Position numbers and translations under genes: made by a program. From the NCBI GenBank assembly GCA_039621445.1, contig CP154954.1, forward strand, positions 33,023,455 to 33,087,454: a stretch of 64,000 nt of DNA, read 5' to 3'. The number at the start of each line of letters is the position of its first letter. Position 1 is the stretch's first letter. This DNA comes from Euglena gracilis. Taxonomy: Eukaryota. Positions 9 through 64,000 of the stretch are shown here, one piece after another. The notes beneath the pieces are model-generated. The model was not told where the DNA came from and ran no database searches. It saw only the letters and a program-made list of their open reading frames with translations.

Positions 9-322
9 CAGGGAATATTTGAAGACAAAACATCTCAAATATTTTGAAGGGTTTTGGGGTAAGATTTTTTAGAAATATATTTCCAAGGGCGGGACAAGAC
101 ATCGAATGTGTCAAAAATCAAAAAGTCTGAAGGCCCATTTTTTTCGATTTGGGTGGATGCACACTGTTCCAGTGATGCCAGGTTTTTTTTTTGCGGAGCT
201 GGATTTTTTGTGGAGGTTTTGCAACTTCATTTTGACTCAGTTTGAGGAGAATTTTGCCAGAAAGGTTTTAGGTTTTTTCAAATTTTTTTTGAGTTTTTCA
301 AAGGCATTTTAAAAATCGCCTG
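9..322. mobile_element. Family-A MITE (CAG..CTG termini)
   Basis: Shares internal blocks (gtcaaaaatc..gggtggat..ccagtgatgcca, aaggcattttaa) with 5864-6249, 38283-38738 (inverted) and 51634-52353. No TSD recognised. Confidence 0.65.
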
Positions 323-4565: not shown

Positions 4566-5130
4566 TGCGTGCATGTATGTATGTATGTACGCTTGTATGC
4601 ATGTATGTATGCATGTATGTGTATGTATGTAGGTATGTATGTACGTATGTATGTATGTTGTTTGAAAAAGAAACATTGGCAATTTCTCATTCTCATGGGT
4701 GTATAGCAAAACGTATGGAATCAAGAGGAATGACCCACCAAACCATTAACCACAAAGAGGGATGCCATTTATGTTCAGGAAAGTTCCATTTCAGGGCACT
4801 TGGAACGGACAGAGCACTCAGAAAAATCATACAAAACGATCTTTGAAAATGAATAGTTCCACAGAGAGGTTATGTGCAGTTGCCTTCCTGTGTCGAAGAA
4901 ATAATTGTGTTTGAATCACCTGTTCTCATTTTAATGAAATGATTTCGGTGATTGTCTTTCTGTTTGTCTGTTTGTCTGTATCATGGACGGACATACACAT
5001 ATGAATACATACACACATACACACTCACACGTATGCATGCATGCATGCATACATGCATGAATACATGCATACATACAAACATGCACACACACGGCCAATG
5101 GTCACAGCACTGTCAATGTGTTAATTCATG

Positions 5131-5153
5131 CTTCCATCCCACCTTCTGCCCAG
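5131..5153 (+). promoter_or_regulatory. Putative spliced-leader trans-splice acceptor
   Basis: Pyrimidine tract cttccatcccaccttctgcc followed by CAG, 20 nt upstream of the ATG at 5174. Euglenozoan mRNAs are SL trans-spliced. Confidence 0.5.
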
Positions 5154-5173
5154 GTTTCACTGTAGCCCACCCC

Positions 5174-8100
5174 ATGTTAGTGCTGCGCGGGGTGGTGGGG
5201 CGCAGCAAGCTGCACTGCAACGCCGGGGTCCTCTTTTCCCTTGCTTCTGCTAGAAATCCCCCCTCCGGTGCCATCTCCCAGAGGACCCACTGGAATAGAA
5301 GACCGGAACGATAGAGGAAGGTGAATGGCCAAACCCAGTGACAACAACATTAATAGTACCAGTTTTAGTGGTGGTGGATGTTTTTGCAGTATTTTTGTCA
5401 TTTACTCTCACAGAACACAAAGGGCTCGTTTTGGGGAGAGGTTCTGCATCAAGGGGTAAGAATTGTGAAGATCATGCACATAAGAAGCCCATTTTCTTTG
5501 CGACATTTCGTTCAGCTGACGGGAGCGATTCTGTTTCAACGACAGGAGCCATTCTGTTTCAACGAGATAAAGATAAGTGTGAGCACTGGCCATTTCCCTG
5601 TTACGGGAAGTTTGATTCCGCTGCCCCAACGAAGCATTGCAGGTGTTTCCATCTGAGCTGGCATGGCTGGGATGGCGAGCGGTGTGACGTGGCGAGCAGT
5701 GTGCCACCTGGCCTTCTGGGGCCTCCCTCCAGGCCACAGTCAAAGGAATGGCGGCCCCTCCGGGACGTCTTCACGGTGTGCACCCCCACCGCCCGCCAGA
5801 CCCTCCTCTTCTTCCCGGGGGATGTACAGGCAGAGCGTGCGGCCATGCTGACCGGCCGGTGCCCAGGGCTATTTTTCAAGCCAAAAGAATCAATTTTCAA
5901 AATTCCACAGGCAATTTTTGAAGCATTTTGTTAAGTTTTTTAAGGCTTTTCTCAAATTGCTGTTTTTCAAGACGGTGCAAGAGCAGTCCAAGAGTCGAAT
6001 GGGGGTCGAAAATTACAGAGCCAAAAAAAAAACGCATTTCCGAGTTTTGGGTGGATTGCCGATGTACAAGCATGCCAGAAATCATTCTCTTTTCTGAAGT
6101 TGGCGTGTTTTTGCCGAGATTTCGAGATTTGCTCAGTCAGATAAAATTCTGCCAAAATGATTTTTTTATTTGACCAAAAGTTGATTTTTGAGTTTTTTTA
6201 AGAGTTTTTTTCTGAGGGTTTTAAGATGCCTTCAAAGAAATCAGCCCTTCTGGTACCCTCAGTTTGCAGAGTATGCATATGAGGGGACGCTAGACCTTCT
6301 GAAGGACAGTTTCCCTGTCTTGTCCCCTGCTGCAACCCTTCCCCGGCCTTCTATTTTGAAATGATTATGTTTGACCCAAAGGAATTGATGGTATTTATGT
6401 CCCCCAAAGTTGTCGTTTGAAATGATTGTAGATGCAGGGTGAAGATAAAGTTGTGGCACCATCACAACGCACAAGAAACGCCAACTGCCAATACAATGCA
6501 AATGAATTCTGAATGGAGGTGGAATTGGTGATCAGAAACAACCTACTCTGGTCTGAGCTAGCATGCTGAAAGTCTTTCGATGGCGTGCCCAGAGCATTTT
6601 TTAAAAAAATTAAATTGTTTTCATTTTTTAAAGTTAATTTATCATAAATTGATTTATTTTCTCAATTTATATCTAAGAAATATTTGCTGATGATTTAATT
6701 CCAGGGAGGTGTCCCTCAAAATGCAAACCATACCTCCCAAATGGGCCGCTCTTCTGTAATGGCAGGGGAAACACGTTGATACGAACCTCTTCCTGATCCA
6801 GCCGGCCGGGCAGGGCGCTGTTGCTCGCCCCTTTTGCCAACCCTATGACCCGGCTGGGGTGGGACACCCCCACCTTCAACTTCACACAACTCCTGGTCCA
6901 TGCTGACACAACTCCGGGCCACAGCAGCTGCCAAACCAGCTCATTTTTTTTTCTGCCAACGAAGGGGTATGGTATAATTGGTTTGGTGTGATAGGGTGAC
7001 AGTTGGGTGATGTTATTGGAACCCAACCGATGCGGCCCCGGCTGGAACAGAACCCCAGACACCGTACAGTGTGCCCCCCCCACACCATCACACCATGCCA
7101 TCCGGGGCCCAGAGCCCTGAGGCATACCAGCACCCGGACGGGCGCAGCGTGTATGCCAACCTGCTGTCCTCCCTGGACGGGGACGGCTCCCTCGTGGTCG
7201 GCCCCGAGGGGGTGGGGGAAGTGACCACCCGCTGCCAGCTGCAGCCCAGCCCCCCCCCGCCATCCCCCCGGGGAGTGCTGATGGGTGCAACGAAAGCGAC
7301 CGGACAACACTGAGCCCTAACTACCCCATAACTACCCCATACCCCATAAAGTTCATTCACCTCCCCCCCCCCCACCTGGAGTGAGTCTTCGTTGGAATTT
7401 GCAAAATGGCGAGAATGCCTGTTAGGGGTACCCCTGAAAAGCCACTGGATTCCATTAACGTGAGGAAACGCTGACATCAGGAAAAAGGAACTTGCAGTCG
7501 CAAGCAGGTTTTCGGCATGTGGGAGAAATACAATTTTCATGTGGGAGAAATCAATTTAACCCTCCCCATGATGGAGCATTTCAAGACAGGAAATGATAGT
7601 TGCCAGTTGCTTCAGGCTTCTTGTAGGTTACTGTTGAAAAAGATTTTTTTTGCACCAACTTAGAGTCGGATTTTGTTTAATTGCTTCAATGTCAATGGAA
7701 TTCTACCATTTGTGATTTTTCAACTCAGTCCCCCATCCAAATACATCTCCCTGGTTGGAGTTCCAACTAATTATAGAAACATCATGTTTTGTGAAGCCAC
7801 ATGCTCAAAGGGGAAGAAATCACTTGATAATTGCGGTTGGTTTTTTTTTGTGCTCTGTTTGTGCTAGTGAGTTTTTTTTTTGCATTTTTCAGTTTGTTTT
7901 TCCTGGTAAATTTTTCAGTTCTGCTGGGATATTATTTCGATTTGGAAGATTTCATGGTGGACTTTTTGGTTTGGGTTTGGTCTTTATTTCTGTGGCCAAA
8001 TTTTGTTCGGTTTTTGTCAGTTTTGAATCCACATTGCGCATTTTCAGATTCAGAAAGTTCGCAAATTTGCATTCTTTTTTTTGCATTGCATGTTGCGAAA

Positions 8101-11100
8101 GTCCGTGTTGCCCCCCACCCCCCCCCCCGCTTTTGGCGCCGGCCATGGACGGACAAGAAGCCTCAGCAACTGGGGGGGGGGGGGCCGGGGGCCGGGGGGC
8201 CTGCCCCCAGCTCTGATGGCCTCTGTGCAGCGGGCGCTGGCCCGGCAGCACGGCGTCGCGCTGCCGCCCCTGCCCCTCGTCTTGCTGGGCTTCAGCAAGG
8301 GATGCCTCGTGCTGAACCATCTGCTGCTGCCTGGCGGGCGCCAGGCTACTGTTCAACTCGAAGCCCCCCCTCCCCCGCGGGGTGGGGGGCGTGGGTTCCA
8401 GGCCAGACCCCCCCCCCCAGGGGGATATGGGTTTCAGCGTGAAGCGCCGAAAATTTTTTGGGAAATGCCTTCAGACGGCCCGATCTTCGAAGTGCAGGTT
8501 CTGCCTTGGGCCGGGTGAGTGGGGGGACCCCTGCCCCTGGGGGGGGGGTCTTAAAAAGAAGCCTGGCGGGCAGCTCCCCTGCAGCGTCGGCCACAGAAAG
8601 CAGCGTGGGCCCTAGTGTTGCGTTTCCTTGGTGGTGGGGCCTCCACAGCACTCAATGTGGAAGTTCTAGATTATTTTCTCAATGTGGAATTTGCGTGCGC
8701 CATGTAAAATTTGCTTGCAGATTTGCCGTGGATTGAACTGCATCTAAGGTCCTCGGCAATAACCCCCCCAACAACAACTGTCATGTCTGGGGAAGTATTG
8801 CGTCCCCCTCCTCCTGAAGCTGTCAGGGTCGCCAGTATTGGCCCACCGGCACCCCCATTTTTATTATTTTTAAACGGCGGCGTTGATGTTCAGGATGATA
8901 TCGACTCTTTTCGAGGGAGGGGGGACAGCACCTGAACTGGCACGTTGGGGATTTTTGCAATCAATCAACTCTGTGCAGTGAACTTTTGATCACATTTTTT
9001 CTGTGCACCCGTTTCCTCCAATTTTCCATTTATTTTTCCTTTTTATTTTCCTTGTTGCGCTGGGACAAAAGTTTCTTTTTTTCCATTTCGTTCAGGGCCG
9101 CCTTGCAAAGAACAGGCAGGGGTTTTCTCACGCGGAGGGGACCCTACCCTGGGGGGGGGGTCCAGCCAGCCGGGCTGTGGGGGGTCCGCTGAAATAAAGT
9201 TTGGGCCACACCCCAGCGAAGCCAATGGACCGAAAATATTGGGAACAGGGGGTCAAAATGGCCAGAAATGGCAAGGCTTTTCGCCTGTTTTTTGGTGCCC
9301 TCCGGGTCCAGCTACCACCTGGCCAGACCCCCAGACCGGTACCCCTGGGGGGGGAGATGGGCAGCACCTTTTTCCAGCCGGCATGCCCCTCGCCCCGGGT
9401 TTGTTTGGGGCCAGGGCCCGCCTCAACCCTCAACCGTCGCCAGCCGCCCGCCGCCGCCGGAGGAAGCGGTGGATGACCCCCGCGACGGCGCCCCCGCCCA
9501 GGACAGCCCCTTCGCCCTCCGCCTCGTGCGGCGCCTCATTTGGGTCGACGCCGGCAACTCCAACCTGCCGGGCGCCTACCCCGGCCCCTGGCCCGCCGCT
9601 GTGCAACGCCCAGGCCGCCTTTCACCTCCGCTGTCCCCCTCAACCCGCTGAGACGGTGGTCTGTTGCGATCTCAGTGTTTGTCACCTACGTGTCGCCTAA
9701 GGAGGAAATTGTGAGCATTCCCGATCAATGATACCGAACTTTATTAAACCCGCCCAAAAGTAAGACCCCCCAAAAACAAGACCCTCCCTTCGAGCAAAAA
9801 TTCAAAAAATAAGACCCCCCCAAAATAAGTCTCCCCCTGGGCCGATCAAGCAAAAATCCAAAAATAAGACCCCCAAAAATAAGACCCCCCCCTGACAGCA
9901 CGAAGCGCCAAAGACGGTGAACATTTGAAAAAATATGCCTGAAAATTGCCAAAACCCCCAATTTCACGCACAAAAATGATGAAATTTCAAATTTTTTTTG
10001 TCAGATTTTTGAAGGGCAAAAAAAAACATGCCAAATGCCAAATGTCAACTTACACCAATTTGCACATGGTTCAAAGCGCCAAAAGAAAATTTGAAATGCT
10101 TTTGGGATCCTGAAAAAATGATTTTTTTTCAGGCCCGGGTTGGTCAAGGAAAAATCCAAAAATAAGACCCCCCCCCTGGAGGTTTCCAGGAACGGACCCA
10201 GAAATATGACCCGGGGCTTATTTGGGGGGGGGGGGGTACTGTTTGTGCAGATTGTTCTGCAATTTGACTCCTTCATTCATTGTTCATCGGTACCAGAGTC
10301 ATTTTTCACCAAAGCTGATGAAGCACAATGTGGCTGGAACCTTCTTTTTAAGAAAGCCAAATGCCAAATGCCACGCACCAAATCACATGCAAAAGAAGGC
10401 AGGGGGAAATGCAAGCTTGTTTTTGACTTGTGTGTGTTTTGTGTTTTGTCCCTTTTTAGGGTCCATCGCTGAAGGAGTTGCATTCCTGGTATTCAATATT
10501 GTCGACAGTTTTTTGCTGGTACCCTCCCCCTCCCTTGTCGTAAGACCACCCCATTATAACGACCACCCCCTGTTCGCAGGTTGCAGGTCAGGGGGGTTTA
10601 ACGACCACCCCCCAGTCGCAGGTCGCAGGTCAGAACCAAAAAAGGCTGGTTTTTTGAGGTTGTCGCCTTTTTCAGGCATTTTCCATGTTCCCCACCGGCG
10701 CTCATGGTTTGCACACCCGTAGCGATGGCTCGAAAGCCTCCGCAGTTTGTACAAGGTCCTTCAGCGCACCCATGACGACAATTCAGGTCCCCATTGGTAT
10801 CGGTCAATATTGTGAACAACAACCACCCCAGTATAACGACCACCCCCCCGGTCGCAGGTTGCAGGTTAGGGGGGTCTAACGACCAGCCCCCCTGTCGCAG
10901 GTTGCAGGTCGTACGACAAGGGAGGGGAGGGTAGCCATTTGGGTTTCTTTCAATAATGCCCAATCAAAAATTGATGCCAAGGATGGTAACATCCAAGTTA
11001 CCATTTAACCTTTAAATCAAAAAAGTGTATCCAAAATAAGCCAGCCATTGGCCCCCTGCATCTGGGCTATGGAATTTGGTTTGGTTTGGTTTGTTGTGCA

Positions 11101-11829
11101 GGACAATTGCTGATGTGCTTAACTGATCGATACACAAAATTCAATAACTGATGAAGGGGGGGGGGGGCGATGAAATGATGCCTTGCTGTGCTTCGTGGAG
11201 CGGTGGGTGGCGGCAAAGTCCAGCAGGGTTTGCCTCGGCTAGCCAGGGGTTTGATGCATGAAATGCTGAAATGAAAGGCTTTGGAAACTACGTGGGATTC
11301 ACGTTTTGACTACACTAACGACCCGCCCCTTCACCCCCCCCCCCTGGTGGGACGGGTTGGTTGGCCCCCTGATGGTCTGTCGCGTCATCAAACCCTGAGG
11401 GCAGCTGCTGACGGGGGTCAGCGCTGCGTCGAAATCCACTCCACCCCGTACATGGTGCAGCTGCGGCCTCGGCTGCGTTGCCACCTGTGCTTGCCCCGGG
11501 GGGCAAAGTGAGCTTTGGGTGTGCACAGCTGGGGAGAGAGGGGGTCACACCACCCCGACCTCACTTTTGGAACCCTGGCTCTCCGCCCCTGCCTGATTTT
11601 GCTGCTTTTCAGTGTGGAAGACACTTTGCTTGTTGCGTGCGCTGGGACTCACTCGATATCTGCCAAAAGGGTTCGGAAGCGTGCCCAACCCACCTCACTC
11701 CGCAAAACACCCATCGCTGCAGTGTCTTACAAAATTTGCCGTGCGGCCAATGCGGCAGAGCTGAGGTTTTGTGTAACTCCACCAAATTGTTGTTGTTGTT
11801 GGTGGTGGTGGTGTTGTTGTTGTTGTTGC

Positions 11830-11871
<42 letters not shown>

Positions 11872-11995
11872 CGTTGGTGTGGTTGTTGGTGGTGTTGTTT
11901 GTTGTTGTTGTTGTTCTCGTTGTTGTGTTGTTTTTGTAGTTGTTGTTCTTTTAATTATCATTATTATTATTAATATTATTATTATAATTATTATA

Positions 11996-12044
<49 letters not shown>

Positions 12045-12272
12045 TGCCTGAAGTCCCCGCCCAGGGGGGGCTTTATTTGGGGGGAGGGTTTACATCCGGG
12101 GGAATGGGGTGTTGCAAAGCGAAGGCTGGCGGCGGGAGGCGAGCTGGAGCAGTTCTGCCGCACGCTGCAGGCGCTGCACGGCGACGCATTCCGCTCCACG
12201 TGCGATTATCACTTCGCCGGCCGCCGCCCCTCACTGGAGGACCACTTTGCCGTCCTGAGGCACGTGCGGTGA
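5174..12272 (+). CDS. C2orf69: C2orf69 / UPF0565 family protein (alpha/beta-hydrolase-like), ~10 exons
   Basis: Stitched exons: 5174-~5221 MLVLRGVVGRSKLHCN; ~5764-5860 DVFTVCTPTARQTLLFFPGDVQAERAAMLTGR; 6255-~6316 YPQFAEYAYEGTLDLLKDSFP; ~6777-6804 DTNLFLIQP; ~7118-7243 EAYQHPDGRSVYANLLSS..QLQ; 8209-~8338 ALMASVQ..LVLLGFSKGCLVLNHLL; ~8571-8604 (uncertain); ~9444-9590 ..RLVRRLIWVDAGNS; ~11383-11460 ..VEIHSTPYMVQ; ~12133-12272 ELEQFCRTL..YHFAGRRPSLEDHFAVLRHVR*. Motifs FPGDVQ, GFSKGCxVLN, WxDxG, HxTPY and PSxExHF occur in the order recalled for C2orf69. Confidence 0.9.
5861..6254 (+). other. Nonconventional intron consisting of a family-A TIR element plus one TSD copy
   Basis: The intron begins GCC-CAGGGCT and ends AGCCCTT-CTGGT|A. 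Removal gives in-frame TGR-Y-PQF. Flanking 8-mers CCGGTGCC / CTGGTACC match at 6/8. Confidence 0.75.
7244..8208 (+). other. Euglenid nonconventional intron
   Basis: GCC-CAG-C-run ... G-run-CTG-CCCCC|A. CAG at +4..6 pairs with CTG at -8..-6, and splicing gives in-frame QLQALMA. Confidence 0.85.
10522..10931. mobile_element. Tc1/mariner-type MITE, TA TSD
   Basis: TA|CCCTCCCCCTCCCTTGTCGTA ... TACGACAAGGGAGGGGAGGG|TA, with internal repeats of TAACGACCACCCC..GTCGCAGGTTGCAGGT. Confidence 0.8.
11787..12043. repeat. (TTG)n / (ATT)n microsatellite
   Basis: Direct observation. Confidence 0.95.
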
Positions 12273-14315: not shown

Positions 14316-29342
<15,027 letters not shown>

Positions 29343-29747: not shown

Positions 29748-32700
29748 ATGGCGAAATGTGTATTGTACCCCAGACCATTTGTGACAAGCAGACCACCGGC
29801 TGGAAGGGAGGGCTGTGAGGCGTCTTTCCGGGAGCTGCAGGAGGAACGCCAGCGAGAGGCCATCCGCCTCCGGCTCCACGCCCCCCCACCCCGCCGCTCC
29901 GCCGACCCGCCCAATCACCCCCCCCCCACACCTGCGGACACATTGGCATCTCTACCAACCCCCCCCCCCCGCTGCCCACAGATCGATTTTCGGCACTGCC
30001 GGTTCCAGCATCAGTACACCAACTGACCCACCGATGCGGCGGTGCAGCAGTGCTTGGCAGGACACAAACGTCCCATACACTGGGGGAGACCCCGGGCCTT
30101 TTGGTTTGCTTTTTTTTTTTGGTTTTGATGGCGAAGGTGGTCCCGTTTCCCAATAAACCCGAAATGGCGAGGCCGGCACACAAAATGGCCGCCCGGCCTG
30201 ACCGCGGCAGGGTGGCCGCAGGACACGGAGTTCGCGGCGCAGCTGGCGTCGGCGAAGCAGAGCGCGGAGCAGCGCCGGCAGGCGAAGCGGGAGGCAGAGG
30301 ACCGGGACTTCGAGGAGCGCTTCGCGAAGTTCCTGGCGGACCAGACCGGCTTCGTGCGGGACCTCCGGCAGGAGGTGAAGGAGGTGTGGCTGCTGACACG
30401 GGAAGCTGGAGGGGCCGCTGACACGGAAAGTGTTCTTGATTCGATGCGCTGAGTGCACACAGGCGCAACTTCGGTCCGAAAGTGACGGGAAAAAAGAAAT
30501 GATGAGATTGTTAAAAATTATTTGATTTTGTGGCATTTTTCCCCCGTACCCTTTCTAACCCCTCCCATTCAGACTGATCCCCCATTCATACTGACTCCCC
30601 CCATTTATACCGACCGCCGTGAAGGAAAGAAGAAGAAGAAATCCATTTATATATAACCCCAACCCCCTCTCTTGCATCCGGTGCACCAAGGTAAAGCACA
30701 GAGAGGTCTCAGAAAACACAAACAAAAACACTTAGGCTCACGCCAGCGTTTATTTCTGGCGAAATGTGAACAGTGGATAATTGCTTATTGGGGGTGGATG
30801 ACAAACTGGGAGAGAGGATGAATGCACGTCACCTCGTCCCCTCCCCCCCCCCAGTTGGGCATCTTGACCCATTTATACCGACCTCCCATTTACACAGACC
30901 CCCCCCGAGATTTCAAGCAGTGTGAAAGTGACATACCGACCCATCGGTGTGAATGAGGGGGGGGGGGTACGTCTTTTGGTGGCAGTACGTAGTCAAATTT
31001 CACACACAAAGTCGGGGACAGACATTCATTTAGTGTGGTACACCAAGGTTGTCATTTTGTGGTTCACTGTGGACACCACAAAAATTTTTGTGGTTCACCT
31101 GTGGACACCAAAAAATTTTTTGTGGTTCACTTGTGGACACCAAAAAATTTTTTGTGGTTCACCTGTGGACACCAAAGTAATATTTGTGGTTCACATGTGG
31201 ACACCAAAAAATTTCCAACGCCTCTGACATTTGCATCATTTTCTTTCTCATCAACAGCAATGAAGCAATCTTCTTTGAACATGTTTGACTCAGGCGGCGT
31301 AAGTGGACCTACAATTCTGGAGCTCTAAAAACAGAAGAGGAAGCGGAAAACCACTTCCAAAAAAGGGTCATATTTTTCGATTTTTTTTGAAGAGGTTCTG
31401 ATTTTGGCCAATTCCGGTGGACGTTTGGCTCACAGTAGAGACCTATACAGTCGAACAAAAAAAAGCGGCCACCCCCCCCCCCCCCACCCCCCCCCCCCCC
31501 CCCCCACCCCCCCCCCCCCCCCCCCCCCCCCCAATCAAAAAAAACCCCCCGTCGAAACAGACCTGAGAAGGCCAATTTACTTTCGAATTCTGGTAAAATC
31601 AACAAAACCAATCAAGAAATACATGAACAGGAGGAACAGACAAAAACAAGCGTTGTTTCTGCTGCCGTAAGCCCCGAAGGAACGAAACAGAAAAATTAAA
31701 AAATGGAAGCGGTAAATATTGCATTCCGCTTCAAAAGCAGGAGATGTGCAACGAAAACTGAACGCAATGAATTATACAGAATGTAATGTAAAAATATGCA
31801 TAATGTTTGCACACCAAAAAGGAAGCGTAAAACCGCTTTGAAAGAATCCGTTAAAAAAAATGTTATGAATTGAAATGATCAACAATGATCACCAAACGAT
31901 ATTCCAATCCCAATAACAACGAAGAACGTTAACATTTATGAAATTTATGAAGATAACAGAAACTGGACAAACGGAACAGAAATTGAATGTCATTATCCAA
32001 AGTGCATAATGCAAATACGTCAAACCACGTGGAGACAGTTGCACGAGTTACGAAAGGTAGAACAGGCGAAACGATACAGACCTTCTGTTCACTTCCCCGT
32101 GCTTCACTTGGAAGGACATTTCGACATGACATTGGCGTAAAACCTGCAAAAAAAAGCAGAGCAAATATGAAGCGGTTATCCGCTTCCTCAGGCTGACATA
32201 ATACCTTTTAATTATCTCATATTGCCAAACTGCAAAAACCAGAATGAGGCTGACACTCACCCTTCTGAATGAAAAACTATACTGAATGTGGTCTTTCATT
32301 GAATGGTCAAGTTGAAGATCTGACACCACAGCAATGAAGTGGCTTTCCGGCTCCTACCTCAAAACAAAGCACATGGCATTGCCGATTTTTCAGTCACTTT
32401 TTCAGGCACTGAGGCACTCAACTGACATCCACAATGCCCCAGAACGCTCCTAATGTCCACAGCCATGCCAAAGCCCCACGATAATGTCGCGTGTTTCTGC
32501 TTCCATGAAGCGGAATTCCGCTTCATCGACGCCAGTATTTAACTTTTTGATGGTATCCTTGTTGGGTAAGTTGTCTATAGAGCATGTCTGCTTGAGAACT
32601 CTCGATAGCAATCTGTCCAATTCCAACTGCCACGCTTCGTGGATTGAGCCGGGGCCAAGGCTCAGAATGTGGTTGAGGTGTCTAAAGATCAATCCGCTTT

Positions 32701-35700
32701 TAGGTGTAAATTTTTTCTTTCGATCCTCAATCAATTTTTGTGGACCACAAATTTTTTTGTGGACACCACAAAAATTTTTGTGGTTCACCTGTGGACACCA
32801 AAATTTTTTTTGTGGTTCACCTGTGGACACCGAAAAAAAATTTGTGGTTCACACGTCTTTTGTGAACCACACTAAATGAATGTCTGGTCGGGGATATGAC
32901 ACATGGTCAATTTGGGGTTTGTTTTGTAATATAAAGAAAACAGCAACAAAAAAGGCACTACAAGACCATTTTGACCTCTTCTTTTTTGACTTTTTTGCCA
33001 GAAAAGTTTTGTCACAAGCGGGAAAAAGTATTCCATTTTCTGTGAAAACCAGTACAGTCCATAAGGGACGGGAAAGTTCTTCTTTATTTTTATTTCTTAA
33101 GGACCCCCCCTTTGGGCCAAAAGGCCAGCAAATGGCCGGACTCAGGCTTGAATGGTGTCGAAAATCAAAGTCAAAAAACACGTTTTTTGACGTTTTGGGT
33201 GGGTGGGCGCTGAGCCAGAGGTGTGGAATCAATTTTCTTCCGCTGTCGATCTGTTCTTGCCGAAAAATGCCAAATTTCCTTGCCCATTTTTTTTGTGGAT
33301 TTTTCATTGCATGTGCTGGGACAGCGGAGTTTTTTTTTAATTTTCTTATGGTGCACCAATTGTGCCAGTGAGTTGTGTGTGTGTGCGCGTGTGTTGTGCA
33401 AATTTCTTCTGAAGGAAGGGCGGGGGGGGCAATGGGAAGGCAATTTTGACCACAGGAGTCGGGTTTGGGGAGGGGGGAGCGTAACACCATGCCCCCAGCA
33501 CCGAAGGCGCTTGGCCCCCAAAATGACCGTTTTCCAGGAAACTTTTTCACCACCAGGATGCAACATTGACCCCCGTAGTTGTTGCTTTGCACTGCCTCCA
33601 GACCCTGTCGTCCCACCCACCGCAGCTGGACGATCAGCAACAGAGGAGGAAACAGCGAGATGAAAGACGACAAAATAGAACACGAGGGGATGAATACAAG
33701 GGATCAGCAACATAGTAGGAAGGAGGAGGCGCTGCACGAGGGGTGGGCGCAGTCGGTGTACCGCCCAGGCTTCTTTTTATCGACGACCCACCAACACCAG
33801 GGTTGCTATGGGATATGGGTTGCCATGGGTAGTGCTATGGGATATGGAGGGAGGGCACTTTGAAAGCCCTCACAGCTCGGTGGGCATTTGGCTTTGGGGT
33901 AGGTTAAGCTAGCACACACACAACACACACATGCACACAACACACACACGCACACGCAACACACACACACACAACACAACATAACACACATACAACGCAC
34001 ACAACGCACACACAACACAACACACACACAACACAACACAACACACACACACACAACCCACACAACACAACCCGATCACAACACACACACACCCCGGCGT
34101 GGAAGGCGCTGGGGGGCCCGAAAATGGCCAATTTTCTGGGAAGATTGCCTAGGCCCCTGGTGTGGGCCAACCCCCGCAGAACCAGGCACACCACTGCCCC
34201 CCAGGGGGTGCGAAACAGACGCCGGGCCCCGCCCGATCCAGTCGGAGATCCTCGCCCGCGTCGAGGCCAGCCCCGCCCACGCCATGGGCGCGTCCCGCGG
34301 CCGCAGCCGCGGGGACGGCGCCGCGCCGGCCGCCGCATCGCTCGGCGCGTCCGGCAGCCAGGCGACCCTGGACCGGTCGATGCAGGAGCGGCTGGACCGC
34401 ATGGCGGGCTCCATCAAGTGCCGCCCCGCCCCGCCCCACCCCGCCCGCCACACTCCCAAAAAAAAAGTTTTTTGGCTTTCTGTGTGACCAAACACCATTT
34501 AGAATGCTATTTTTTGAACCATGCGGACAGTTTACAGATAAAAAATGGGGCATTTGTATTTTTTTAGGGGTCAACCTTTGACCACAGTTCCTGGAAGCAT
34601 TGACCAGACACTATTTTTAAAGCGAAAATTTCGAAATATTTCAAGGTTTTTGGGGGGTTTTTTGATATTTTTAAGGCACCTTAAGAATTAATACCTGCCC
34701 GCCCTGCTGCCCCCACTGCTGCCGGCGCAGACACGTGAGGCTTCCACTCGTCGTGGCGCCATCGACTGCCATTTGCAGCTGTCAGTGGGCCGGAACCGCC
34801 GCCATCCCATCCCTGTCCATAAGCATCCATTAAGCCTCCCTCCCCCAGGCTGACCGACCAGCCAAAGTGATCCCCCCCCTTTTTGACGGTTTTTGTGGGT
34901 GTTATCGCCAAAAAAAATTTCGCTTTTCATGTGACCAGCACCACTTAAGGTGCTAAATCTTTTAAAGCATTGTAACGGATTTCAAATTAAAAAATGGGTA
35001 TTTATTGGGGTATTTCTAAGAGTCAGATTTTCGCCATCAGTTCCTGGAAGCATTGACCCCCCCCCCCAGCACTCCCATGGTTGTCTCTGGGGTCACCATG
35101 CGCAATTACCCTGCAGGTACTCCGTCAAGGTTCAGGACCCGCTCTTCTCCTCGCTGGGGACGCACTTCGACGAGGAGTTCAGCGCGCTGGCCGGCGTGCT
35201 GCTGAAGCGGAAGGGCCCCGAGTACCGCAACCTGGCCTCACCGCTGGAGTACCTCCGCCCCGAGGCGACCCCCAACGGCCGCTACTCCGAACAGGTGTGG
35301 GGACGCCGCCTTATTGATGCTTTAAAGCATTAAGCCCCCGGTGTAATCCAGGTCTTGAATTGGTGGCAAAAAGCAAACTCCCTCCATAAAGTGCCCACAA
35401 CGAGGTATTAGCAGCGTCGATGAATATAACCTGTTTATCATGATCCAGTTATAACTTAATAATAATAAGTAAACCCCCCCCCAAATAATACCCCCCCGGG
35501 GTATTATTTTTTCGCCCGAAGTCCCGGCCCGAGGGGGGGGGTATTATTTGGGGGGGGGGGTATTATTTTTCCAAAAATTTCGAAATTTTTCGAAGTCCCG
35601 TAAAACCCAAAATAGCACCCAAAACCCCCTTTGGGGTCATTTTTTGCACTTTCTTGTGAAATTTACCATTTTATGGAGGTCAGATGAGCCAGAAAAATTG

Positions 35701-38700
35701 ATTTTTTTTCGTAATTTGTTGTCAGAGATTGTGGTTTTTACCGACATTTTCAGGTCAAAAATCCGGGCCTTCGGCCCGGAACAGGGGGGGGGGTATTATT
35801 TCGGCGGCCGAAGTCGGACCCCGAGGGGGGGGGGTTTTATTTGGGGGGGGTATTATTTGGGGGGGGGGGTATTATTTGGGGGGGGTTTAACCTATATAAT
35901 AACCAAATGATAAAAAAAAAAAAAACAGCAATTATGTGAATAAGGCATCCTTCCAACGCTCCTCATGGGGGTCCAGCCAGCCAGAAGCCTTTTCCCGGCG
36001 CTCAGGAGAAATATTTTTAAAATAATTTTTCAGCCTTTTCTCCCATAAAAGCATTTGGTTTCTATCTAAAGGGCGGCAGGGCAGTAATGGATTTATTTGC
36101 TTTATTGGATGATATCAGGGCCCCCTGAGAGGGGCAACTCAGAGGCTGCAAAAATTTGGGTTGGCCGGAAAATGAGGGGGAAATTGGCTTGGCCAACCTC
36201 CCTATAGGGGCCCCCTTGTCTGCAGCTGGCCGGGCTGGGAAAAAATTAAAGCGGCAAAAAGGGGCGAACCAGCAAATTATGATATTTTTATGGCAGGTGG
36301 GGGGTGGGGGTTGGGGGGTGGGCGAAAGTCAGTCCGGGGGGGGAGGTACCCGGTGCCCATTTTCCCGGAATTCGGCCCCGCAGCACCCAGGAAATGCGCC
36401 GGAATCGGGCAATTGTGGCCAGGTTCAGGGAGAATGAGTGATTAAACCTCCCCCAAATAACTTTGCAGTGCCCTGAAGCTTTGCGTGCCCAAATAACTTT
36501 GCAGGGGGGGGAAGGCCGAAAAGATCGGTCCAAATGATTTTGCCCCACCCCTTTTCAAGGGAAAACACGCGAAAATTAATGCACGTTTTTGGGAAATCAG
36601 GAGGAACTGAAATGCCACAATGTTCCATTATTTGATGAATCAAAGCATTAAATTATATTACAAATATCAATGAACAGCACATGACAACAAATTATTTTTC
36701 GGGAACGTGGCCAATCGGTCCATCGTGGTTTTGGGTCCTGCCCAAATAGCTTTGGAAGGGGCTGGGCCAAAAAGATCGGTCCACTAATTTTGCAGGGGGC
36801 AAAGTTATTTTGGGGGTGGTTATTTTGAGGAATAGGGTTAGGGTAAGGATTGGTGCGCCAAAAATTGGCCATTTTTAGGGACCAAGCTAGGCTGGAAGTC
36901 AGGTCCCCATTTCGAAATGTTTTTAAGAACACAATCCGCCAAAAAACTGCCTGAATTCGACCTAAATTGGTCGGTCCGAAATGCATTAAATTCCCCCAAA
37001 AAAGGCCAGGAAGCTCTCTGAGAGTCCGGCCGTTACCCTAACCCTATCTTGAAAAATAGCCCAAATTTTCCCCAAAGGGTGGAACTCGTGTACCACCATC
37101 CCCCCCCAGGCTGACTATCGCCCCCCCCCACCGGGGGGGCCTAAGGTAGGTGGCTGCCATTTTTATTCCCAAATCTGAGATGGCCTGCCCATTTCCGCCC
37201 TATTTTCCCCCCACTGGTTTCTGGAGGAGGTCGTTAAGGGCACGCCCTGGTGGGTGGGTCACCCCCCCGGGGGATCAGGGTGGTCCATTGGGGACAAGGT
37301 ATTTTTTTTCTTGCTGAGGACCACCCCATTGGCGGCTGGCCTGAACAGGGTTAGGATGAAGCAATAGTAGATTATAACGTCGGCAAACGTATTTTCCGAT
37401 GCTTTGGGTGGCAATGGTCTATTAATACTAAAAATCAGAATTTTTTTCAAAGTCAATTTCCCTCGGGCGAGTGGGCATTTTTCCCCGGGCCCAACACCCA
37501 GCTTTTTTTCTTTTTGAGGGGGGGGAACCCCACCACCCATGACCCCCCCCCAGGATCATTTTCAACGCGAGAAAAAAAAACTGTGCTGGCATATTTAACT
37601 GAAAATCCACCGGGCAAAAGGGGGATTTTGAGATTTCTCGGCAAACCCGGGCCACCCGGTATCGTCCCCCAGCCTCCCATTCGCCCCAGAACACGCGGCT
37701 CCACCAGCGGCGGCGCGTGGCCAATGCCCCCCGGGACAAGCTGGCGCTGCCGGACCACTACGCCCCGGCGGTGCTTACTTCAGGGCGGGGGGGGGGGGGC
37801 GGGGATGAGAGACAATTATGTTCGGCAGAAGGGTTGGGGTTCGTGTTGGGATTTGTTGAGACGAGTGGTCGCATGTGTGTTGGATTGGCGTTGGGGTGAG
37901 CGTCGGGATTGGTCGGTTTCGGAACGAATGACCGACGTGCTCGGCTGCCTTCCCCGGCCGACCGGAGCCAGACCTCCGGTGGGACACCAACCGCGGACCA
38001 TGACGCCTCCGGGGGATGCCCCGGCCACGTTTGGAGTTCCGCCGGCCGCCGCCGAGCCGTCCCTGGAGGACACCCGGGTCGCCCTCCGCAGCGAAGTGGG
38101 AGGTGGGCCCAGAGCGCCTCAGAGCAGCCTCGGGAGAGGCGTATACAACAGCGCATTGCCGTGGGTGTTCGATTTGAAAAGAATACAAACGAACACAACC
38201 CCTGTGGAAGCTTTGATATGGCAATGCAACCCAACCCCCCAACTGGAGCGCCAAGAGGACGCAGAATGCAGAATGTGGGCATCCATGAACAGAAAAGTTC
38301 CTGAAAAAAAAATTCGTCAAAAATTGATGTTTTCTGCCAGAGTAGTAGCCTCAAAATGCGGTTTAAGAATTTTGGTCAAAATGCCTTAAATGGCTTTGAA
38401 ATGCCTTCAAACATTTGGTCTGGCAAAATTTTCTCCAACCAAGCAAAAATGAAAACTGCAAAATCTCAGCAAATAAAGGCCAACTCGGGAAGAAAAATGA
38501 TTTCTGGCATTGCTGGAACATTGTCTATCCAACCAAATCTCAAAAGAAATGTGTCTTTTGACTCTTTTTTTTTGATTCTGTGAAACGTGCAAAATCCAAA
38601 ACGTTAGTTTGCCCCGACAACCCTTTGACTGCCCTGGAAAATACCGCTGTAAAATGCCTTAAATGCTTTAAAAAGCCTTAAGAAATGCTTTAAAAGGCCT

Positions 38701-41341
38701 TAAAATTTGAAAATTTTTGCCTTGAAAAGTAATCCCTGGTGGCCATCCAAGAGGTGAGTGACAGCATCAGTAATATCTGATAACATGAAAAAAACAAACA
38801 GATCAAGGAAGTACCAGAAATTACAGGCGAAAGGAAAATATTTGGTGTTTTAAGCTTGGTAATCTGGTACCTCAAACGATAAATTGAATCTCTTTGGCCA
38901 GCCAATCAAAATAAGTTGTGGCTCAATGGGCGAGGGAATATAACAAGGAAACTTTTTGTACAAGATGAATGAAGAAAAACATTCCGCTGACCCCCAGAAT
39001 AACAAGCCTCCCTGACCCCTCCTGCCAGCATTGGATACCCCTCAGGCTTTCTGTGTACAAACATCATTGGCAGGCATATTCTTAATGGCCCCTCCGGGGG
39101 GGAGGGGCGTCCAAAACATCCAGGCAACAGATTGTGTTCTGATGAGTCAGGGGGGCCTTCAGCATACCCCCCCCCCTATGTCCAACGACCCCTGTATGTC
39201 CAATGACCACCCCCCCGGTCAGAGGACACCTTTTCAGAGGTTTGACCAAATTTTTGGTCCCGGCGCTTCACGCCGGGACGAAAAATTTTGCCCAAAAATT
39301 GGCCAAAAATTTGGCCAAAGTGCCATTTTTGACACTTTTTGGACAAAAATTTGTCAAAATTGCCCAAAATTTTCGGCGCGAAGCGCCAGAAGGGAAAATT
39401 TGGGCATTTTTGGGTGGGTAGGGACCCGGGTACCCACCAACTTTCTTTTGACCCCATGTCCAACGACCACCCTCCCGGTCAGAGGACACCTTTTTGGTCA
39501 CTACCCTATGTCAACGACCACCCCCCCCCCCGGTCAGAGGACAGAGGTTACCGGTCATTGGACATAGGGGGGGGGGGGTAATTGTGCCTGCTTTCCCACT
39601 GGCGATGTGACAGCGGTTTCTCCTTTGGGGAGGTGCGCACTTTTTAGGGAGGTAGTTTCGGACCCCTTGGGGGTGCGCATTTATTTGGGCACTGCGCTTA
39701 ATTAGGGCACTGCGCTTAATTAGGGCACTGCGCACTTTTGGGGGGGGTTTAGGCCCAAGTTAGGCCGCATTCCGGACGAATTTTGGCTGAATTCGGGCAC
39801 TTTTTTTTTGCCTAAAAATGGGACCCAATTTCTGGCATAACTTTGTCCCTAAATTGGACCAATTTTTGGCGCACCGATCCAGCCCTGACCCTATTCCTAA
39901 AAATTAAGTGCCCATCCTACCTGAATCCACTGCCGGTTGCCCTGAAACCGCGCACTTCCCCCGTGCCGCGGGCAAGCACCTATATTTAAAATGGCCAAAA
40001 ATGGCCGGAAATGGCCGAAAATGGCCGAAAATGAAATTTTGGGCTCTATAGGTGGGGGTCCCGAAAATGGCCGAAAATGGCCGAAAATGGCCGAAAATGA
40101 GACAATTGTTGCAATTTTTTCACATTTTTTTTTGCCTAACAGTTTCTTTTTCCCTGAGGGGCAATTTTCAGTGCGACTGATTCTTATCTCTGTGCAGCCT
40201 TTCTTCTTTTGTTATCATGCCTGGCCCTGCAACACATGCTGCTCAAAGAACCACCTCCGAATGGGTTATTTGGGCCAAAGCCGATGGCTTTGATGACATT
40301 TCAGAAAATTGTGGTGACAAGGTGCAACCAGGCAAAGTATGTGATGCGTTTTTTTCTCCGTTAAAGGTGTGATTCCTGCATCAGGTTTATTGCACACAAG
40401 TGGATGGGATCTAACAGTGCCACCATCAAACAATGTTGCTTGGGGTATCAAGTTGGAATAGGTGAGGGGAAGTTGTTTGTGAAAAGTATCCACGCCAAGA
40501 GGCTTGAAGAGAAAAGCACCAGTTTTGGTGTTGCCATCCACCATTGTGGTTAATATGTCATGTGCCAACCACTCTCATGTAGCGTCCCAAGAACCCCCAG
40601 CAAAAAATGACCAAAGTGGACAAGAGCCTCTCTGGCAGGAAAAAAGAAGCTTATTCCCAAAACCTTATATTTGCATATTGCAACAAAAAACTCTTTGACC
40701 TCTTTAATCCCTGAGCACCCATTCCAAACGGACCTCCTTGGATGCGTTAGCTTGTCACAACTGCTTTCATGTTGACTGAATGACCAAAATGCATTGTAGG
40801 TATGAAAGAATTTTAAGGCAGCTTTACCCCCCACTTGTAGGAAAAAATGGCCGAAAATGGCCGAAAATGGCCGAAAATGGCGAAAATCTGGGGGTCAACT
40901 ATAGGTTGTTGCCCGCGGGACCGAAAAGTCGGACCCAGGTCACCCCCCCCCCGGGGGGGGGAGGCATTAAGAATATGGCTTCCATACACATATTGGGGGA
41001 TCAAACCTCCAGGACCAGAAACTAAAACATTTTCTGCTGCAATTTTGCCCTCATTTTGCCCAAGTCTACTTTTCTCACACAAAATTCCAATGCGCTTTAA
41101 AAAAAATAATGCCTGATGGCAGCCATTGACAACAACAACCCCCAGCTCAAAATGCTGCGGGCCAACCCCTCTCGTCCACAGAACGCCGAAGGGCCGCCTC
41201 AGACCGGGGGGCTGCATCACGTACCAGGGAAGCGCTCTGCCGGGGAAGCGGATGGTCAGCCACTCCCCGACCGCCCCCGGGCCCCGGCCCACCGGCCGCA
41301 AGGCCCTGCAGGGGCCCCCCGACGGCCTCGGGTCGCTCTAG
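29748..41341 (+). CDS. FAM228-like protein (multi-exon)
   Basis: Exons: 29748- MAKCVLYPRPFVTS; ~29808-29880 EGCEASFRELQEERQREAIRLRLH; 30222-30381 DTEFAAQL..FAKFLADQTGFVRDLRQEVKE; ~33626-33660 LDDQQQRRKQ; ~33718-33762 RKEEALHEGWAQSVY; ~34240-34418 EILARVE..QERLDRMAGSIK; 35117-35294 YSVKVQDPLF..; ~37705-37770; ~37990-38095; ~41182-41341 TPKGRLRPGG..GSL*. The pattern F(V)xDL...RKExLHxxWxxxVY..DPL resembles recalled FAM228. Coding status is strong; the family call is moderate. Confidence 0.6.
30549..30967. mobile_element. TA-flanked MITE
   Basis: TA|CCC..CCCATTCATACTGA repeats at the left and TCGGTGTGAATGAGGGG..G|TA at the right. Confidence 0.55.
31019..32886. mobile_element. hAT-like non-autonomous transposon, 1.87 kb
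   Basis: 21-bp TIR CAGACATTCATTTAGTGTGGT / ACCACACTAAATGAATGTCTG, a perfect 8-bp TSD GTCGGGGA on both sides, and subterminal ~29-bp tandem repeats TGTGGTTCACCTGTGGACACC. Confidence 0.92.
39167..39578. mobile_element. Tc1/mariner-type MITE, TA TSD
   Basis: TA|C-run-TATGTCCAACGACC ... GGTCATTGGACATA-G-run|TA. Confidence 0.8.
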
Positions 41342-50600: not shown

Positions 50601-52562
50601 CCGTTCCCGACGCTCTCCATGCAGGACGTCACCTTCAATCAGTTGTCCACCGCGGCCGTCGGATTGTGTCCCCCGCCCTCCAACAGAATTTTCTTTGCCC
50701 CGTTCTTTCCGATCCCACTGATTGCACCGTTTGTGGCGGTCACGCGCTTCCATCATATTACACCACCATGCATCCGTTTTTCACGTTGTTCACGTTGGTG
50801 TTTGGGCATCGGGAACACGAAGGGAGTCGTCCCGTCACAGCTGGGGGTTAACCCGACGTTTGTCTCCGCGGCCGCCCCGTGTCCGGCTCGGGGAGCGATA
50901 CTTCTACGTCCACGCCGGCGGCTGTGCGCACTACGTCGTGTTCACTGCAGTCCGCCTGCTGCACCCCGCCCTGCTGCCCCCCTGCCAGCCCGTGGCTGTG
51001 GAAATCATTTCCTCCCTCCTCCCACGCCCTCCTGTTGGTTTCCTGGAATTTACAACGCCGACCAAGAAATGTGTGGAAGTACCAAATCCTGCCTTTTCTG
51101 ATTCGGAGGGGGCCATTCCGCATGCATTTTATTCCCCATCAAGCCACCAGCAGAAGCGATTGCCCACTCCAAAAGAATTCTTCAGGCAGAAACGGCGGCA
51201 TCAGCAGCGCCGGCAGGCAGAGGTGCAGGGGGAGGATTGATATCCGCAATTTTTCCGCAATTTTTCTGCAATTTTCTGCGATTTTTTCGCAATTTTCCGC
51301 GATTTTTTCGCAATTTTCCCGAAGGCCATCGATATCAATCCCCCCCCACCCCGTGAGAGGCATGAGGGCAGCAGCCGGCAGGCGGGACGCCACCCGCCGC
51401 TCAGCGTACCCGGACCGCGTGTTCTGTCTCAAGCCGCGGGTGCGGCGGTGCGGCGTGTGCGACGTCCGCAACGCGAAGAAGGTGACGTACAATGACCAGC
51501 TGTGTGTGGACAGCCCGGCTAGGGACTCCTCTGCATCCACTGGTATTGTACCCACTGCAGGCGGTGTGTGTCTGCCAAAGCCACCGCATGCGTGTCCACA
51601 CAATCCCCCCAGGTTTCCCTCAAAGACTGGGGGCAGGCGTTATTATTTCCATCATTATTATTATTATTAGTGTTGGTATTGTTGTTGTTGTTGTTGTTGT
51701 TGTCGTTGTTGTTGTTATTATTATTATTGGTATTAGTAGTATTAGTATTATTAGCATTAGTATTTGTATTAGTGTTAGTATTAGTATTGGTATTAGTATT
51801 AGTATTAGTATTAGTATTAGTATTAGTATTAGTATTAGTATTAGTATTAGTATTAGTATTGGTTTTAGTATTGGTATTAGTATTAGTATTAGTATTAGTA
51901 TTAGTGTTAGTATTAGTATTATTTATTTATTTATTTTTCTATCTATTTATCTAATTATCTATTTATTTATTTATTTATTGACTTTTATTTTTAAGGCGAA
52001 ATTTTCAAAAAATAGGGTTTATAAAAGTTTTTTAAAGGCATTTTAATGTTTTAATGCATCTGTTTTCCGAGGGCAGTCAAAGAGCCAGGCATCTAATGTC
52101 GGTCAAAATCGAAAATCAAAAAGTCGAACAAACCCATTGTTTCAAGTTTTGAGTGGATAGACAATGTTCCAGCGATGCCCTGAAAATCCAGAACTCATTC
52201 CCCCCCCCAGAGTTGACTTGTTTTTGCCGAGATTTTGCGACTTCTTTTTTCTTGCTCGAGATTTGAAAAATTTTCCTAGAAGATTTTTTGGGGATTTTTA
52301 AGATTTTTAAAGGTTTTTTGAGGATTTTTACGGCGCTTTAAAAGAAATGCCTGACTGGGGGCCTCCGGGAGGGGGAGTGCAGAGTCAGAAAACCTCGTAG
52401 AGTTGAACTGCAGCTGTTGCAGGTCTCTCTTCCTGCCCTGCCACGTCTGCAAACGAGCCAGCTACCAAACGTTTTATTCCTCAAACCCCGGTGTGCATTT
52501 CATTTTGGCCGTGGTGGTTGTGCAAGCAGCAGATATGAGTGCCTGGCGACCCCATCAAGCTT

Positions 52563-55663: not shown

Positions 55664-64000
<8,337 letters not shown>

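Follow-up and report, generated by a model that had tools for sequence, protein, structure and literature searches.

Introduction

The origin of the nonconventional introns of euglenids, and of the 3/5 geometry with which they are cut, has been debated since the 1990s. One such intron is considered here, namely the second intron of a C2orf69-family gene in a 64,000-nucleotide (nt) stretch of the Euglena gracilis genome (assembly GCA_039621445.1, contig CP154954.1, positions 33,023,455 to 33,087,454 of the forward strand). The whole of this stretch is referred to as the window, and all coordinates are given within it. The body of the intron is a member of a dispersed repeat family, which we call family A, and it is likely that the intron is an insertion of such an element. 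Splicing with spacers of 3 and 5 nt would then remove the element together with one copy of its 8-bp target site duplication (TSD) and restore the reading frame.

The introners of Micromonas and Aureococcus are of the spliceosomal GT-AG type and draw one of their splice sites from the TSD; in work of 2016, Huff, Zilberman and Roy are said to have derived them from DNA transposons. The splicing of Ds elements makes use of cryptic spliceosomal sites and is usually imprecise. Such removal of Ac/Ds (hAT) elements from maize transcripts was reportedly described by Giroux et al. in 1994.

The reference system for the present locus is formed by the euglenid nonconventional introns themselves, as studied by Milanowski et al. 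in 2014 and 2016 and by Nomura et al. in 2025, with the code 5'-N3CDG...CH'GN5-6|R. An origin of these introns from elements resembling MITEs (miniature transposable elements with inverted repeats) was suggested in 2014, at which time transposons were not yet known in euglenids (PMC3935182), and it was restated in 2016, 2024 and 2025 (PMC4770533, PMC11282704, PMC11170887, PMC12501133, PMC12621601). In a 2024 review, the CAG/CTG ends are named terminal inverted repeats ('TIR') and the junction repeats are called 'TSD-like' (PMC11282704). In one strain of E. agilis, Milanowski et al. (2016) observed a newly acquired gapC intron with direct repeats of eight nucleotides, which they attributed to double-strand-break repair (PMC4770533). 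The nonconventional junction follows the rule Y|R, with a purine opening the downstream exon (PMC4770533, PMC12501133), and 84.4% of E. agilis introns can be slid along their junctions by means of direct repeats (PMC12501133). Synthetic introns of 50 bp with CAG/CTG and spacers of 3 and 5 nt are spliced in E. gracilis (PMC12501133). Their design lists no direct repeats, and the repeats of natural introns therefore reflect history and not a splicing signal.

The origin of nonconventional introns was still termed unclear in 2025, and the words hAT, TSD and introner do not occur in Nomura et al. (PMC12501133). In the literature searched, which comprised open text and no supplements, no paper places a nonconventional intron in a repeat family or ties the 3 + 5 spacers to an 8-bp TSD. 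An earlier reading of the window from its sequence only (the sequence-only reading) had stated that a transposon origin was published only in general terms, which agrees with the available text of these papers (PMC3935182, PMC4770533, PMC11282704, PMC12501133, PMC12621601). The locus is a concrete and testable case of the long-standing MITE hypothesis, not a new category. It gives that hypothesis a named family of repeats, a TSD whose measured length is 8 and an arithmetic link, 3 + 5 = 8.

Intron 2 and Its Splice Junction

The gene was placed with P0001 (EukProt EG_transcript_18880), a member of the C2orf69 family (PF10561, E = 1.1e-16). The features on which the argument rests are the following.

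Start codon 5174 to about 12269, plus strand: C2orf69-family gene with nine introns (tblastn of P0001 on the window).
5174–5221, plus strand: exon 1, from the start Met (MLVLRGVVGRSKLHCN; tblastn of P0001 and RNA joint 5221->5764).
5764–5860, plus strand: exon 2, with the 3' end ATG CTG ACC GGC CGG T (RNA joints, translation, P0001).
5861–6254, plus strand: nonconventional intron 2, 394 nt (RNA joints, boundary table, P0001 junction).
5856–5863, plus strand: left 8-mer CCGGTGCC, interpreted as the left-hand TSD, with five exon nt and three intron spacer nt.
5864–6249, plus strand: family-A copy c1, 386 nt, with the ends CAGGGCT...AGCCCTT (MAFFT, nhmmer, fold, composition).
6250–6257, plus strand: right 8-mer CTGGTACC, interpreted as the right-hand TSD, with five intron nt and the first three exon nt.
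6255–6317, plus strand: exon 3 (YPQFAEYAYEGTLDLLKDSFP; RNA joints, translation, tblastn of P0001).

RNA was mapped over positions 5100–11700 with two raw RNA sequencing runs (X21 and X22) and two contig sets (X16 and X17), all chosen by the same species label; the contig sets are presumed to be RNA. The joint 5857->6252, which skips 394 nt, is present in three reads of X21 and two reads of X22, in one X16 contig (depth 18.9) and in one X17 contig (depth 25.9). The cuts thus lie at 5857|6252, and they can be slid: because GGT is present on both sides, the junction is ambiguous by 3 bases, and there are four equivalent placements, from 5858–6251 through 5861–6254. The position 5860|6255, given by the sequence-only reading as the junction that restores MLTGR-Y-PQF, is among them. 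P0001, which was derived from a transcriptome obtained independently and from an allele that differs slightly, reads AAMLTGRYPQFAEYAYEG / AAMLTGRYPQFAEY and has the same junction, so that reads, contigs and P0001 agree with that earlier placement within the slide of 3. No back-splice joint of intron 2 was found among the RNA joints, and the read depth across the intron is near zero. At position 5771, the window has T (DVFTVC), whereas A (DVYTVC) stands in every RNA read and contig and in P0001. The two versions, which reflect a difference between strains or alleles, share the same intron 2 junction.

The borders of the intron are not GT/AG in any placement; they range from GG..CT to GC..GT according to the slide. 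With the placement 5861–6254, CAG lies at +4 to +6, CTT (not CTG) lies at -8 to -6, and the downstream exon begins with A. Both junctions have the form Y|R (T|G at the 5' side and T|A at the 3' side), the downstream exon opens with a purine, and the third exon base is C. Two of the three pairs between CAG and CTT can form, the outermost pair (C-U) being lost, and four more pairs follow from GGCT/AGCC. The resulting terminal helix, AGGGCU/AGCCCU, is part of both the minimum free energy and the centroid structure and is prolonged at the locus by the near-palindromic flanks GGUGCC/GGUACC. As a whole, the intron has a fold energy no better than that of shuffled sequences (z = -0.91). Of the CAG/CTG splice code that had been ascribed to intron 2, the CAG at +4 to +6 stands, and the 3' motif has to be corrected to CTT. 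An alternative intron of 397 nt, which would have had a true CTG at -8 to -6, is out, as the RNA skip is 394 nt and P0001 reads R-Y-P, not R-S. The published signature is matched by 61.2% of annotated E. agilis nonconventional introns (PMC12501133), so many introns deviate from it. Since introns 2 and 7 of the present gene are both CAG...CTT and are both spliced, natural CTT variants exist. In these two introns, longer inner pairing may compensate for the CTT.

Family A, a Dispersed Element

The element within intron 2 stands out from its surroundings by a GC content of 36%, compared with 62% in the flanking exons. Its right end, AGCCCTT, occupies 6243–6249, and its termini pair over 6 bp (AGGGCT/AGCCCT). 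Intron 2 contains 386 element bases and 3 + 5 nt, nothing more. Since 386 + 8 = 394, there is no space in it for older intron sequence. The other full copies in the window are listed here.

51634–52353, plus strand: family-A copy c3, 720 nt, with the ends CAGGCG...GCCTG (MAFFT, nhmmer, flank-repeat scan).
38338–38738, minus strand: family-A copy c2, CAGGGATTAC...CTACTCTG (MAFFT, nhmmer).
9–322, plus strand: family-A copy c4, CAGGGAATATTTG...ATCGCCTG, at the window edge (nhmmer, sequence).

Three copies can be aligned over their full length with MAFFT, and self-BLAST yields partial matches. A profile built from these three copies was used with nhmmer and found the fourth, c4, which was absent from the profile, at 16–311 (E = 7e-30). 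The same profile also found three relatives that have only the core of about 160 nt (E = 4e-11 to 1.6e-7). In total, family A is represented in the 64 kb by four full copies and three core-only relatives. A degenerate 25-nt core pattern matches four times in the window, at the four full copies, as against no match in 100 shuffles. Copies are non-coding, range in length from 314 to 720 bp and have unrelated flanks; their pairwise identity is 56–66% over aligned columns, with c4 included in this comparison together with 26 extra flank bases. The dispersal of the family, as found by MAFFT and nhmmer, and the sum of 386 and 8 confirm the earlier claim that intron 2 is entirely a family-A element.

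Where the ends are readable, the similarity between copies begins at CAGG and stops at GCC(C)TG, or at GCCCTT in the intron copy. The inverted ends are CAGGGC/GCCCT(T) in c1 and CAGGC/GCCTG in c3 and are weak in c2. On its own, the 7-mer CAGGGCT is not enriched (11 matches, 11.03 expected). In c3, a microsatellite has expanded within the 5' part, and the true start at 51634 was revealed by the flank-repeat scan. One of the four full copies is demonstrated as an intron, and the other three lie outside the RNA-mapped region. In metagenome scans, the core pattern had no match, and 82 pattern matches for relatives of P0001 included none that was confirmed; the element had no match in a phage collection.

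Eight-Base-Pair Flanks

The two 8-mers that flank the element in intron 2 are identical at six of eight positions. Only 354 of the 63,992 8-mers of the window (0.55%) reach at least 6/8 against the left flank (P of about 0.005). When the register is shifted from -10 to +10, register 0 alone scores 6, and the rest score at most 4. Both mismatches are transitions, and each falls within the intronic, unconstrained half of a copy. The flanks of c1 can be understood as a decayed TSD, and the exonic halves of both flanks indicate that the original 8-bp target was probably CCGGTACC.

In c3, the CAG...CTG ends are directly abutted by a perfect 8-bp duplication, ACTGGGGG, at 51626–51633 and 52354–52361. 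The match between the flanks is thus 8/8 in c3, 6/8 in c1, 2/8 in c2, whose 3' end is placed tentatively, and 1/8 in c4. The left flank of c2, TGGATGGCCAC, recurs at 10/11 as TGGATGCCCAC about 55 nt past the 3' CTG (38273–38283 and 38739–38749, minus strand).

The 64-kb window was also scanned for CAG...CTG pairs with additional end complementarity and matching flanks. Duplications of 8 bp occur at CAG...CTG elements of the window, both at a member of family A and at elements unrelated to it. The further elements, given without strand, are as follows.

31019–32886: unrelated non-coding element of 1,868 bp with a perfect 8-bp TSD, GTCGGGGA.
20828–21444: CAG...CTG element of 617 bp with a perfect 8-bp flank repeat, CCCCTGAC.
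34202–34706: CAGGGGG...GCCCTG element of 505 bp with a perfect 8-bp flank repeat, CTGCCCCC.
45935–46237: CAGGCC...GGCCTG element of 303 bp with a 7/8 flank repeat (ATGTGGAC/ATGTAGAC).
10589–10894: CAGGGGGG...CCCCCCTG element of 306 bp with a 7/8 flank repeat, nested in intron 7 (high contig depth).

The 1,868-bp element has inverted ends that match at 24/25 and begin with CAGAC, tandem repeats of about 30 bp in subterminal position at both ends and an internal poly-C tract of about 60 nt; it contains no long open reading frame (ORF). In a test with tandem repeats and homopolymers masked, 3,241 candidate pairs were compared with 63 shifted controls. Three exact abutting flank repeats were found at k = 8, where the controls had a mean of 0.16 and a maximum of 2 and none of the 63 reached 3. 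At k = 7 and at k = 9–12, there were none. The element at 34202–34706 was left out of this test, as it touches masked sequence. A further 8/8 match, at 35926–38303, was discarded as a poly-A artefact.

Other Introns of the Gene

None of the eight introns with RNA support has GT-AG borders, and all fit the arrangement N3 + three pairing nt ... three pairing nt + N5. The bases that pair are CAG/CTG in three of the introns and CAG/CTT in another two, while GGG/CCC, TGT/ACA and TGG/CCG occur once each. When flanking 8-mers are compared over the eight introns, 29 of 64 positions are identical against a permutation mean of 20.4 (P = 0.009), and with intron 2 removed the values are 23 and 16.4 (P = 0.017). 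Summed over introns, the identity is highest at register 0 of the 13 registers. The sample is small and the excess in the other introns is a weak indication, which lies in the predicted direction, as though older TSDs had decayed in their intronic halves.

Some further features of these introns can be mentioned. Intron 7 (9608–11189) has the same CAG...CTT pairing as intron 2. Five of the eight introns, starting at 5222, 5861, 7244, 8329 and 9608, begin with a GCC spacer, and introns 1 and 7 have the identical left 8-mer GCAACGCC. The shared spacer and the shared 8-mer hint at a preference for target sites or for splice sites.

Proposed Mechanism and Its Support

The preferred reading can be put as a short series of steps. 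A non-autonomous DNA transposon of about 390 bp, with the CAGG...CCTG ends of family A, would have inserted straight into an exon, with duplication of a target of 8 bp that was probably CCGGTACC. The nonconventional splicing system would then have recognised the paired ends of the element, and the cuts would fall 3 nt ahead of the 5' CAG and 5 nt past the 3' element end. As 3 + 5 equals the length of the TSD, the RNA loses the element and one TSD, and the frame that existed before the insertion is back. The removal of the element plus one 8-bp TSD by the 3 + 5 offset had been proposed from the sequence, and it is supported by the RNA junction, by the perfect TSD of c3, by flank repeats that occur at k = 8 only and by the geometry of the seven other introns.

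At this locus, the account is well supported, and it may plausibly apply more generally, with the insertion of elements that duplicate 8 bp as a source of the 3/5 geometry. In its strongest form, the 3/5 geometry exists since its sum is the length of the 8-bp TSD of a group of CAG...CTG-ended transposons, the nonconventional introns, which make up roughly 70% of those of Euglena, are mostly such insertions, and the slidable repeats are decaying TSDs. Splicing would then act as a 'precise excision' at the level of RNA, and exon insertions would be harmless at once. We regard this wider proposition as tentative and give it somewhat less than an even chance. It is even conceivable that the splicing machinery derives from factors by which transposon ends are recognised, or that it evolved together with them.

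A number of observations weigh against this reading, at the locus or in its general form. The first concerns the splice signal: intron 2 has CTT, not CTG, at -8 to -6, whereas a change of CTG to CTA abolished the splicing of a published test intron (PMC12501133). In addition, family A has short inverted ends, of about 6–8 bp, and its copies are old. Given this age, it is somewhat surprising that the TSD at c3 is perfect, unless divergence into subfamilies preceded the insertion. The flanking 8-mers of c2 and c4 match at only 2/8 and 1/8, with no TSD in register, and the 10/11 repeat of the c2 flank lies outside the TSD register. At 47951–48647 and 14488–14669 (CAGG...CCTG), the abutting repeats are 7 nt long, or 8 if the terminal base is shared; either the TSD is occasionally 7 bp or the junctions have changed by 1 nt. 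Taken singly, the seven other introns of the gene match at just 3–4/8. The statistics of flank identity are weak when tandem repeats, which dominate them, are left unmasked: there were seven matches of at least 7/8, where the controls averaged 2.9 and 21 of 255 were at least as high, and three matches of 8/8, where the controls averaged 0.35 and 7 of 255 were at least as high. The masked test was set up once the hits were already known. Finally, the evidence is confined to one 64-kb window.

The account of element plus TSD, the core of the sequence-only reading, holds in the light of these data, with the correction of its CTG detail noted above. The term 'introner mechanism', which that reading also used, goes beyond the evidence, since a single family-A copy is shown to be an intron. 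The arithmetic of 3 + 5 = 8 accounts for a scar-free insertion in an exon and offers a possible route by which introns could arise harmlessly. If it is true, the introner principle, that is, the creation of introns by transposons on a genome scale, reaches a splicing system that apparently works without a spliceosome.

Superfamily and Competing Explanations

The superfamily of family A is a separate question. The hAT superfamily has the end consensus 5'-YARNG, which the CAGGG-like end of Ac/Ds illustrates, and the target consensus nTnnnnAn, which is weak in hAT itself. The 8-bp length of the TSDs in the window fits hAT. Among the ends, CAGGG (c1, c2 and c4) and CAGGC (c3) fit YARNG, and CAGAC of the 1,868-bp element does not. 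Of the targets, CCGGTACC, ACTGGGGG, GTCGGGGA, CCCCTGAC and CTGCCCCC fit nTnnnnAn at one position at most, and only ATGTGGAC fits at both. A Pfam scan of 10 long ORFs, out of 31 listed with at least 230 amino acids (aa), revealed no transposase; the remaining ORFs of at least 230 aa lie mostly within tandem repeats. The 'hAT-type' label of the sequence-only reading is thus unproven: it has the TSD length and the end consensus in its favour and the target consensus and the lack of a transposase in the scanned ORFs against it. We consider membership of hAT possible, with a chance clearly below even.

The strongest of the competing explanations accepts the element and its TSD and changes only the mobiliser, which would be Merlin or another superfamily that duplicates 8 bp (e.g., P). 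E. gracilis is reported to contain two families of Merlin, which have 8-bp TSDs and a conserved DDE motif (PMC8101967), and the word hAT is not applied to the E. gracilis genome in the Euglena literature searched. The absence of a hAT transposase from the scanned ORFs and the departure of most TSDs of the window from the hAT target consensus point in the same direction. Merlin elements, however, have TSDs of 8–9 bp and inverted ends that start with 5'-GG (PMC8101967), so the window elements agree with them in TSD length and not in their ends, as CAG stands directly after perfect 8-bp repeats. The end CAGGG is compatible with the hAT consensus and resembles that of Ac/Ds. On balance, a mobiliser other than hAT is unlikely, though it deserves to be taken seriously.

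It is considerably less probable that the likeness of the flanks is coincidental or has another origin, with the element having entered an older intron or with filler DNA having been captured in double-strand-break repair, a process that likewise produces short direct repeats. The match of intron 2 at just 6/8, the lack of flank repeats at c2 and c4 and the recurrence of the c2 flank about 55 nt beyond its end, which is no simple TSD, would suit this explanation, and break repair is the published interpretation of the eight-nucleotide repeat at the new gapC intron (PMC4770533). It does not account for an intron that is made of the element and 8 nt only, for a 6/8 match that is confined to the exact register or for flank repeats that are perfect over exactly 8 bp, and absent at lengths of 7 and 9–12, at a family member and at unrelated CAG...CTG elements. 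A length fixed at 8 bp is not expected of break repair, and the presence of many dispersed family-A copies with unrelated flanks indicates transposition. That family A is a mobile intron spread via RNA, the excised circle being reverse-spliced and copied into DNA, is very improbable: nonconventional introns are reportedly released as full-length circular RNAs (cited in PMC11282704) and splice-code trinucleotides stand at all family-A ends, but reverse splicing gives no target duplication, whereas c3 and the unrelated elements have perfect 8-bp ones of differing sequence, the spacers are not conserved among copies (5' GCC, CAC, AGC and GGG; 3' CTGGT, ACTGG and CCTTG), and the long inverted ends and subterminal repeats of the 1,868-bp element are typical of DNA transposons.

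The Gene and Its Surroundings

Over exon 6, the gene and P0001 agree at 100%, which indicates that the window is nuclear DNA of E. gracilis. When single exon pieces were compared with Pfam, five of six had no match, and exon 6 matched PF10561 under the cut-off. The borders of the last intron, about 11477–12140, are approximate, as P0001 and the window differ there. Intron 5 contains a G/C homopolymer-rich segment, 8110–8192, with the highest raw RNA depth of the mapped region, joints of the type 'opposite strands' (16 + 20 reads in X21) and loose ends of poly-C/poly-G. This signal probably stems from an artefact of a repeat or hairpin, or from a low-complexity repeat that is transcribed. Within intron 7, the segments 9741–10400 and 10625–11066 have a contig depth of 20–375x, compared with 2–25x in the exons of the gene; high-copy repeats nested here are thus well represented in the RNA or contig sets.

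Tandem repeats occur elsewhere in the window. A tetranucleotide-type microsatellite array of about 1.8 kb at 21640–23500 shows a strong strand skew (GC skew -0.41), and short relatives of it are found at 4573–4658 and 5033–5089, directly upstream of the C2orf69-family gene. Two G/C-skewed tandem-repeat blocks, at 56900–57680 and 61410–61830, match each other in inverted orientation with an identity of about 75–84%.

Comparison with Known Systems

Intron 2 is like the introners of Micromonas and Aureococcus in that a non-autonomous transposon lies in an exon and the geometry of element and TSD restores the mRNA. It is unlike them in its non-canonical borders and in the way in which the cuts are set by distance from the paired ends (3 + 5 = TSD length), and the comparison is made with just one family-A copy shown as an intron. 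With Ac/Ds, family A shares the 8-bp TSD, the CAGGG ends and the behaviour of a transposon as an intron. In contrast to that of Ds, the removal of intron 2 is exact and belongs to the normal processing of the gene; membership of hAT is only putative.

Within the same species, the Merlin elements of E. gracilis resemble family A as DNA transposons with 8-bp TSDs (PMC8101967). They differ in having GG ends and a DDE_Tnp_IS1595 transposase (PMC8101967), whereas the window elements have CAG ends and are non-coding. The abundant introns of Fritillaria borealis and Amoebophrya that are ascribed to MITEs are similar to intron 2 in their non-GT-AG borders, inverted ends and TSD-like junction repeats; they differ in lineage, end motifs and TSD length, which is 3–5 nt in Amoebophrya, and the introns of the tunicate Fritillaria borealis are removed by a modified spliceosome (summarised in PMC11282704).

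The closest agreement is found with the euglenid nonconventional introns. Intron 2 shares with them the non-GT-AG borders (GC..GT), the CAG at +4 to +6, the spacers of 3 and 5 nt and the Y|R junctions, as well as the C at the third exon base, the paired ends and the short direct repeats along which the junction can be slid. It departs from the published code in its 3' CTT, with an outermost C-U, and its helix is formed from AGGGCT/AGCCCT. Above all, the body of intron 2 can be assigned to a dispersed repeat family, and the published nonconventional introns examined have not been so assigned.

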